From Escherichia coli (GTDB lineage Bacteria > Pseudomonadota > Gammaproteobacteria > Enterobacterales > Enterobacteriaceae): a stretch of DNA of 64,000 nucleotides. The translations under genes were made by a program, and so were the position numbers. The notes under the pieces are model-generated. The model searched no databases and had not been told where the DNA came from. It saw only the letters and a list, made by a program, of their open reading frames with translations. Below, in pieces: positions 15,432 to 51,432 of the stretch. The stretch lies in NCBI RefSeq assembly GCF_003334335.1, contig NZ_QOWQ01000009.1, one strand, 5' to 3'. Position 1 is the stretch's first letter, and every line of letters starts with the position of its first letter.

Positions 15432-15466
15432 TGTGATCCAGAGGCTGGGTGACAAACGTATAATTG

Positions 15467-15565
<99 letters not shown>

Positions 15566-16766: not shown

Positions 16767-16865
16767 GCCGGATGCAGCGTAAACGCCTTATCCGGCCTAC
16801 AGTTCATTGCAAATCCATTCAATTTCAATGCACGATGTAGGCCTGATAAGCGTAGCGAATCAGGC
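16767..16865. repeat. REP elements
   Basis: GCCGGATGCAGCGTAAACGCCTTATCCGGCCTAC and an inverted GTAGGCCTGATAAGCG...ATCAGGC copy. Confidence 0.8.
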
Positions 16866-46841: not shown

Positions 46842-48143
<1,302 letters not shown>

Positions 48144-48347
48144 TTCTGGTACGCCTGGCAGATATTTTGCCTGCCGGGCGAACAGTGTGATACATTGCTG
48201 TGTCGGGTAAGCCATTACGCTATCCGACACAGTGTTAAATCCTCGCTTTTTTCCTTCCCCGAACTGAAATAAATTAGCGACACAGCTTGTGGCTGGTTTA
48301 TCATCAATATAAATGTATTTTTTCCCGATTTCCCTTTTGAGGTTGAT

Positions 48348-48773
48348 GTGCAGTTAACGAGTTTCACTGATTACGGATTACGTGCGCTGATCTACATGGC
48401 GTCATTGCCAGAAGGGCGGATGACCAGTATTTCTGAAGTGACTGACGTCTACGGCGTCTCCCGTAATCATATGGTCAAAATAATCAATCAACTTAGTCGT
48501 GCCGGCTACGTGACTGCTGTTCGTGGAAAAAATGGCGGCATTCGCCTGGGTAAACCGGCGAGTGCGATACGTATTGGTGATGTGGTGCGCGAGCTGGAGC
48601 CCTTATCGCTGGTGAATTGCAGCAGTGAGTTTTGCCACATTACACCTGCCTGTAGGTTGAAACAGGCACTTTCTAAGGCCGTGCAAAGTTTTCTTACGGA
48701 ACTGGATAACTACACGCTTGCCGATTTGGTTGAAGAGAATCAACCGCTTTATAAATTATTGCTGGTGGAGTGA
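48348..48773 (+). CDS. nsrR: Nitric-oxide-sensing repressor NsrR (Rrf2 family)
   Basis: 141-aa (M)[23 protein letters not shown]... from a GTG start. Confidence 0.93.
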
Positions 48774-51310: not shown

Positions 51311-51407
51311 GCCGGATGCGGCGTGAACGCCTTATCCGGCCTACATAATCACGCAAATTCAATATATTGCAGAGATCATGTAGGCCGGATAAACGTAGTG
51401 CATCAGG
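51311..51407. repeat. REP elements
   Basis: GCCGGATGCGGCGTGAACGCCTTATCCGGCCTAC and an inverted TGTAGGCCGGATAAACG...CATCAGGC copy. Confidence 0.8.
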
Positions 51408-51432
51408 CAAAACGTAAACAACGAGTACATTA

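Follow-up and report, generated by a model that had tools for sequence, protein, structure and literature searches.

The purA-nsrR spacer

The window, i.e. the whole stretch of 64,000 nucleotides of Escherichia coli DNA that was analysed, carries purA and nsrR on the same strand (+), separated by a spacer of 204 nt; rnr is the next gene after nsrR. Positions are given in window coordinates and are converted to the MG1655 genome by an offset of +4,357,842, derived from the annotation of purA and nsrR. According to Conway et al. (2014), purA-nsrR-rnr belongs to one complex operon with read-through at leaky internal terminators. The flanking genes, both taken from the list of open reading frames and the MG1655 RefSeq record, are:

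46845-48143, + strand: purA coding sequence (adenylosuccinate synthetase; MG1655 4404687-4405985), with both hairpins described below in its 3' UTR
48348-48773, + strand: nsrR coding sequence (MG1655 4406190-4406615)

Two hairpins downstream of purA

The 5' half of the spacer contains two inverted repeats, here numbered in the order of transcription:

48152-48180, + strand: hairpin 1, a 10-bp stem (CGCCUGGCAG / CUGCCGGGCG) with one G.U pair and a 9-nt loop, evaluated by folding against shuffled sequences
48197-48233, + strand: hairpin 2, from an inverted-repeat search and RNA folding against shuffles; the element occurs once per genome in 5426/5426 E. coli

Hairpin 2 is built on a perfect core of 9 bp, CTGTGTCGG (48198-48206) and CCGACACAG (48224-48232), with 17 nt between the arms; the inverted-repeat search lengthens this core to 12 nt at 92% complementarity (48198-48209 / 48221-48232). 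An earlier note on this DNA, made from the sequence alone, had described a stem of 9-11 bp with a 17-nt loop about 60 nt after the purA stop codon. The stem is indeed there and starts 55 nt past the last base of the stop codon (48143), and what was called the loop pairs further: folded as RNA, hairpin 2 has 13 pairs that are followed, across a 1-nt bulge, by 2 inner pairs and an apical loop of 6 nt. Seven of the 15 pairs are G-C. The 301 nt around the hairpin are 100% identical to K-12-type chromosomes and are found in 5426/5426 complete E. coli genomes.

The fold of hairpin 2 reaches -23.2 kcal/mol, compared with -8.1 +/- 2.1 kcal/mol for 200 dinucleotide shuffles (z -7.2), none of which is as good. 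Perfect hairpins of at least 9 bp are found at 13 distinct places in the window, or in 24 entries when nested ones are counted, as opposed to about 4.75 entries in mononucleotide shuffles, and the chance expectation for one such hairpin in a spacer of 204 nt is about 0.015. Both the shuffled folds and this low expectation indicate that hairpin 2 is more than a chance pairing.

Hairpin 1 is absent from the earlier note. It begins 9 nt after the purA stop codon, upstream of hairpin 2, and folds with -19.7 kcal/mol (z -4.5); a stretch of 130 nt with both hairpins folds with -48.6 kcal/mol (z -6.5). In the minimum-energy fold, hairpin 2 is additionally enclosed by the outer helices AGUG/CGCU and GAU/AUC (48184-48247), which end at a T-run. 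The direct repeat ACAGTGT that was said to flank the stem is present in both copies (48182-48188 and 48229-48235) and carries no weight, being at chance level, with its second copy overlapping the 3' arm of hairpin 2. We considered a target-site duplication as the source of this repeat and dismissed it, since chance alone accounts for a 7-mer that recurs within 300 nt and the second copy is part of the stem.

Conserved blocks upstream of nsrR

The spacer also contains two conserved features on the side of nsrR:

48244-48252, + strand: CGCTTTTTT block with the T-run TTTTTT (48247-48252), a conserved element upstream of the nsrR promoter and not the U-tract of a hairpin
48267-48309, + strand: nsrR promoter region, with AAATAAATTAGC at 48267-48278, TGGCTGGTTTATCATCAATA at 48290-48309 and a predicted -10 element TATCAT at 48299-48304

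The promoter region has a column identity of approximately 100% over 61 enterobacterial loci and is the only promoter-like site in our scan; the nsrR transcription start is placed from the conserved predicted -10 element. Together with AAATAAATTAGC and TGGCTGGTTTATCATCAATA, the block GAGGTTGATGTG (48338-48350) is near-invariant across genera. Judging by these conserved blocks, the 3' half of the spacer evidently represents the nsrR promoter and its ribosome-binding site. The blocks upstream of nsrR (CGCTTTTTT, AAATAAATTAGC, TGGCTGGTTTATCATCAATA and GAGGTTGATGTG) are 70-100% identical over 61 enterobacterial loci of many genera, which is far more than a plain sigma-70 promoter needs.

The T-run was the last element of the structure proposed in the earlier note, which placed it about 20 nt after the stem. 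It exists, at a distance of 14 nt from the perfect stem, and its connection with the hairpin does not hold. Over 61 non-Escherichia loci, the CGCTTTTTT block is 70-90% identical, compared with 0-30% for the hairpins, and it keeps a fixed distance from the nsrR promoter across genera. In Salmonella enterica subsp. diarizonae (locus L024), an ORF of 178 aa parts the T-run from the purA terminator, and repeat insertions do the same in Dryocola, Cedecea colo and a third locus (L061, L073 and L070); in all of these the T-run stays with the nsrR promoter. Since it remains there where insertions separate it from the purA terminator, we regard the T-run as a separate conserved element that moves with the nsrR promoter. 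It lies about 60 nt upstream of the predicted nsrR start, where it could act like an UP element or bind a factor.

Some further observations concern these insertions and possible binding sites. The extra ORF of the diarizonae locus (492-1028 in L024) occupies a spacer of 893 nt, in which purA has a simple hairpin terminator, GGGCGTGGTTATCCACGCCC. The insertions in L061, L073 and L070 comprise about 70-110 nt with long inverted repeats and lie between the purA terminator and the nsrR promoter, while insertions of the same kind and size are located inside the nsrR 5' leader in L040 and L056; they are probably small enterobacterial repeat elements. Near the predicted nsrR start, TAAATGTATTTT (48309-48321) resembles an NsrR half-site and is not conserved in other genera. 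It fits 8 of the 10 specified positions of AANATGCATTT, which we take to be the half-site consensus, and might allow autoregulation. For CRP, PurR and IHF, comparison by eye of the spacer between the hairpins with the consensus sequences gave no convincing match.

Turnover of the hairpins between genera

Our comparison includes 80 enterobacterial loci. The sequence of hairpin 2 occurs only in Escherichia, and the present pair of hairpins only in E. coli and E. albertii; the latter retains the fold of hairpin 2 with -23.9 kcal/mol. Right after the purA stop codon the sequence is unconserved, and a stable hairpin of some kind is found in every enterobacterial genus sampled. Klebsiella, Raoultella, Kosakonia, Phytobacter, Pluralibacter, Yokenella, Cedecea, Buttiauxella, Shimwellia and others possess a canonical GC-rich hairpin with a T-tract. 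A REP or a pair of REPs lies between the same conserved flanks in Citrobacter, Salmonella (arizonae), Kluyvera, Enterobacter and Leclercia. The comparison shows that the end-and-protect role stays at one position while the sequence that fills it turns over between genera, being a canonical terminator in some, a REP/BIME in others and a unique pair of hairpins in Escherichia. The variable segment of E. coli (91 nt) has no significant similarity to that of other genera in shuffle-controlled local alignments (best z 2.9 in about 65 comparisons).

Covariation was examined within Escherichia, in a sample of eight E. coli variants, an albertii-like 'E. coli' and E. albertii, which amount to seven distinct, nearly identical sequences. 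Among 25 base pairs, none is changed on both sides in these seven sequences, which show little divergence, the other genera being unalignable. Four of the 25 have one-sided changes that keep the pairing (C-G to U.G, U.G to C-G, G.U to A-U and U-A to U.G), and 93% of the cells are paired. The 9-bp core stem of hairpin 2 is constant in eight aligned E. coli sequences, drawn from the 5426 genomes with the element. In hairpin 1, two pairs change on one side within Escherichia and are still paired, and two others are unpaired in some strains. This pattern, seen in closely related sequences, is compatible with the predicted structure and does not prove it.

Two functional readings offered in the earlier note find no support in these data. 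An attenuator is not indicated by any Rfam match, by conservation outside Escherichia or by double-sided covariation. As for an RNA derived from the 3' UTR, there is likewise no Rfam match, the sequence is restricted to Escherichia, and it is without the U-tail of Hfq-dependent 3'UTR sRNAs. The sole match in an Rfam scan of 47800-48700 at E <= 10 is SraB, whose 16.9 bits fall far short of the gathering score of 130 and are considered noise.

Mapped RNA 3' ends and Rho-dependent read-through

Published transcriptome data and base composition add three features:

48238 (MG1655 4406080), + strand: RNA 3' end, Term-seq, LB at OD600 ~0.4 (Adams et al. 2021, eLife 10:e62438, PMC7815308; files 1 and 3 of the supplement)
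48236-48312, + strand: C-rich, G-poor untranslated tract, a putative Rho loading (rut-like) region according to its C/G ratio and by analogy with Dar & Sorek 2018
48283-48304, + strand: small weak hairpin CAGCUUGUGGCUG followed by GUUUAUCAU, a terminator-like match of the scan (fold -5.4 kcal/mol, z -1.0)

Transcript ends had been proposed as a check on the hairpin, and the Term-seq data place one just past the stem of hairpin 2. The end at 48238 follows the extended stem by 5 nt and the perfect stem by 6 nt, in the context ...CCGACACAGUGUUAA; it corresponds to base 51 of the printed 61-nt string, which shows the hairpin sequence, as checked on the thrL row of the table of Adams et al. It is supported by 1179 reads, is classed as 'orphan' and is located 110 nt upstream of the nsrR start (PMC7815308). 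The signal is weak compared with the 21835 reads at the post-hfq end (4400650), and it was called in one of three conditions. For the T-run, positions 48250-48255 and hairpin 1, no 3' ends are reported in the three growth conditions (PMC7815308). The TERMITe tables hold no purA entry. In a literature search we found no published discussion of hairpin 2, though its 3' end stands in a published table.

According to the same data, the region is sensitive to the Rho inhibitor bicyclomycin: DirectRNA-seq counts upstream and downstream of 4406080 are 289 and 258 without bicyclomycin, and 541 and 1088 with it (PMC7815308). For this position the authors give a Rho score of 2.25 and the entry 'significant Rho termination region: Yes' (PMC7815308); the score is computed on 800-nt windows that include the nsrR promoter, and an effect of bicyclomycin on that promoter could add to it. 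A stronger Rho-region peak lies about 150 nt downstream of the 3' end, at 4406232 (window 48390, ~40 nt inside the nsrR coding sequence), with a score of 5.41 and p = 2.7e-55 (PMC7815308, file 2). This signal of 5.41 inside nsrR suggests that Rho also limits nsrR-rnr expression.

From the 3' half of hairpin 2 to about 48312, the + strand is rich in C and poor in G. Windows of 78 nt with starts at 48190-48250 have a C/G ratio of 1.4-1.64, as opposed to 0.7-1.0 farther up- and downstream. The tail right after hairpin 2 is UGUUAAAUCC, which is not U-rich. In the consensus terminator scan hairpin 2 is not called, and there is no U-tract 0-2 nt after its stem. The published intrinsic-terminator score of the 3' end is 2.41, where values of at least 3.0 suggest intrinsic termination (PMC7815308). 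Hence the opinion in the earlier note that the element is not a tight canonical terminator is borne out.

Minor, weak 3' ends are listed at 4406132 (48290) and 4406146 (48304), at the small hairpin with GUUUAUCAU (PMC7815308, file 1); judging from their place in the file, the first would belong to LB at OD 2.0 and the second to M63. The small hairpin and GUUUAUCAU overlap the -10 element of nsrR, so that purA read-through transcripts may also end within the nsrR promoter.

Interpretation

With moderate confidence, and by analogy with a class of E. coli transcripts described previously, we interpret hairpin 2 as a protective 3'-terminal stem-loop of purA mRNA that would act after Rho-dependent termination farther downstream, with hairpin 1 as a second barrier. 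Rho-dependent transcripts of this class have steady-state 3' ends directly after stable stem-loops without U-rich sequence (Dar & Sorek 2018, NAR 46:6797, PMC6061677). C is enriched over G (rut) immediately 3' of such stem-loops, and PNPase and RNase II produce the ends by trimming back to the stem-loop, an arrangement that is presented as general for Rho-dependent transcripts of E. coli (PMC6061677). Because the anatomy of the purA 3' region matches this class feature for feature, hairpin 2 is taken as a protective 3' cap. Most likely, it adds an ordinary example, not discussed before, to a known class and is not a new regulator.

The mechanism that we propose starts from what is directly supported, namely a stable hairpin, a mapped 3' end, read-through that is sensitive to bicyclomycin and an excess of C over G. 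Polymerase leaving purA would transcribe both hairpins and the untranslated C-rich, G-poor tract. Rho would load on this tract and release part of the transcripts downstream, presumably around the nsrR start. The 3'-to-5' exonucleases, by analogy PNPase and RNase II, would trim the tail until hairpin 2 stops them, and this stop would give rise to the defined 3' end at 48238, while hairpin 1 would serve as a backup barrier behind it. No 3' end is seen at the T-run or at hairpin 1, as expected if trimming from downstream halts at the outermost hairpin. Transcripts that escape Rho would continue into nsrR-rnr, and such read-through agrees with the complex operon of Conway et al. (2014).

Among the alternatives, a weak intrinsic terminator fares best, though we consider it unlikely. 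Hairpin 2 with its poor U-tail (UGUUAA) might itself release the transcript at about 48238, or the bulged structure 48184-48247 might end it at about 48250, the end being nibbled back afterwards. The 6 nt between the perfect stem and the 3' end are a typical release distance and, as a counterpoint to the trimming model, also fit weak intrinsic termination; the outer helices of the minimum-energy fold finish right at the T-run; and in most other genera the same position is taken by a canonical intrinsic terminator. However, the published score stays below its threshold and the consensus scan makes no call. The outer helices, set off by a 4x4 internal loop, contribute no more than about 4 kcal/mol. 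The T-run belongs to the nsrR promoter block in other genera, and no 3' end is reported at 48250-48255. The bicyclomycin sensitivity of the region also argues against this explanation.

Another alternative concerns the relationship of the two hairpins to REP elements. They could be a decayed REP/BIME remnant without selected function, both hairpins descending from the REP pair found at this position in Citrobacter and Salmonella and persisting since palindromes decay slowly. REP elements are said to have been described as mRNA stabilisers by Newbury and co-workers in 1987. Bona fide REPs are present at the orthologous position in Citrobacter, Salmonella, Kluyvera, Enterobacter and Leclercia. 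By eye, hairpin 2 (GUCGGGUAAG...AUCCGAC) is similar to the Y-type REP (GCCGGAUAAG...AUCCGGC), a C-G pair of the REP stem being replaced by U-A, and hairpin 1 is similar to the Z2-like REP of Pseudenterobacter and Leclercia. From 21 true REPs we built a covariance model, which matches hairpin 2 with E = 0.02 when the spacer alone is searched. Over the whole window, however, the same match has 7.0 bits and E = 6.3, whereas the seven true REPs there score 41.6-57.5 bits. The local alignments to other genera mentioned above lack significance, and that of hairpin 2 to the REP consensus has a score of 15, which is about the 90th percentile of random windows. The GTAG motif is absent, with CUGU--G where REPs have UGUAGG; the element is single-copy (a query of 119 nt finds a median of one place per genome in 5426 E. 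coli genomes); and the stem of hairpin 2 exceeds a REP stem in length and strength and is invariant in the eight aligned E. coli sequences. The reading as a decayed BIME, first suggested by MAFFT and pairwise alignments, was therefore reduced to a weak hypothesis of origin, as membership is not supported by the consensus alignment, the shuffle-controlled alignments or the covariance model. Hairpin 2 is not a member of the REP family, and descent from a REP is possible. A functionless remnant is improbable in our opinion; moreover, origin and function are separate matters, and a remnant could still cap the mRNA.

The window itself contains four bona fide REP pairs (BIMEs), at 15466-15564, 16767-16865, 51311-51408 and 58066-58148, one of them just past the rnr terminator. 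The REPs of the window carry no annotation in the MG1655 RefSeq record used here. As this record lists no REP features whatsoever, not even at the true REPs at 15535 and 16767, a missing annotation in the spacer carries no information.

We give an equally small chance to endonucleolytic processing, in which RNase E would cut at UUAA|AUCC, in a single-stranded, A/U-rich segment directly after the hairpin, or RNase III in the long stem, and thereby split purA mRNA from an nsrR-rnr RNA. RNase E reportedly prefers a purine two positions upstream of the cut and A/U followed by U downstream, a preference said to come from work of Chao and co-workers in 2017; AA|AUC fits it in part. The hairpin would stabilise the upstream product, and read-through transcripts exist. 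But processing leaves the Rho dependence unexplained, a bulged stem of 13+2 pairs is short for RNase III, and our literature search returned no 5'-end or RNase-mutant data for the site at 48238.

A further copy of a hairpin arm in the spacer invites the idea of a switch:

48278-48286, + strand: third arm copy CGACACAGC, perfectly complementary to 48197-48205 and overlapping the predicted -35 element of nsrR

This copy repeats the 3' arm (48225-48232) as CGACACAG(C), 53 bp away, and is present in Escherichia only. In an attenuator or switch, the 5' arm 48197-48205 would pair either with its 3' arm or with 48278-48286, thereby controlling the hairpin at 48283-48295 and hence read-through into nsrR-rnr. 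The alternative pairing is perfect over 9 nt, and growth conditions other than that of the main 3' end yield the minor ends at 48290 and 48304. A complement of at least 9 nt to the hairpin region elsewhere in the spacer occurs in 1.2% of shuffles, a figure that was calculated post hoc, after the match had been seen. Against the switch, hairpin 2 is the first to form as the RNA is transcribed, and its stability exceeds that of the small hairpin by about 18 kcal/mol. Neither a leader peptide nor a ligand-binding fold nor an Rfam match accompanies the pairing, and the third copy, confined to Escherichia and overlapping the -35 element, may be under promoter constraint. We consider such a switch very unlikely, and the third arm copy is probably without function.

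Least plausible of all, and hardly to be expected, is an Escherichia-specific switch of hairpin 2 and the third copy that would set purA read-through into nsrR-rnr, or a hairpin-capped fragment of the purA 3' UTR that would act in trans as an sRNA or sponge; if the switch were true, purine metabolism would be linked to the levels of RNase R (rnr) and of the nitric-oxide sensor.

With the protective stem-loop as the preferred explanation, the purA transcription unit of E. coli gains a defined 3' end (window 48238, MG1655 4406080), and hairpin 2 would account for the 'orphan' Term-seq peak previously listed as a possible nsrR 5'-UTR element. For engineering of purA or of the nsrR-rnr promoter, the T-run should be counted, together with the blocks downstream of it, as part of the nsrR promoter, and the two hairpins as part of purA. 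Beyond annotation, the importance of these assignments is small.

Comparison with known systems

Three known systems resemble the purA hairpins. The REP/BIME elements share with them the location of extragenic palindromes in a 3' UTR, the arrangement of two hairpins as in a BIME and the motif CGG.UAAG...AUCCG; a block to exonucleases is expected of hairpin 2 as of REPs. In contrast, REPs are repeated, possess GTAG and have a stem of 7+3 pairs, whereas hairpin 2 is unrepeated, without GTAG and has 13+2 pairs.

The canonical intrinsic terminators downstream of purA in Klebsiella, Kosakonia, Raoultella, Cedecea, Buttiauxella and other genera occupy the same position and presumably have the same task, i.e. 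ending and stabilising purA mRNA. Unlike them, hairpin 2 has no abutting U-tract, a less GC-rich stem, a large loop and a score below the threshold.

The closest correspondence is with the protective stem-loops of Rho-dependent transcripts. Protective 3' stem-loops are said to have been proposed earlier, for REP elements, by Peters and co-workers. At the purA locus there are two hairpins in tandem instead of one, the Term-seq signal is weak and comes from one condition, and a role of exonucleases is assigned by analogy. In agreement with these stem-loops, hairpin 2 is stable, has no U-tract and is followed by a precise 3' end a few nucleotides downstream, and the locus combines bicyclomycin-sensitive read-through with a tract of C over G immediately downstream.
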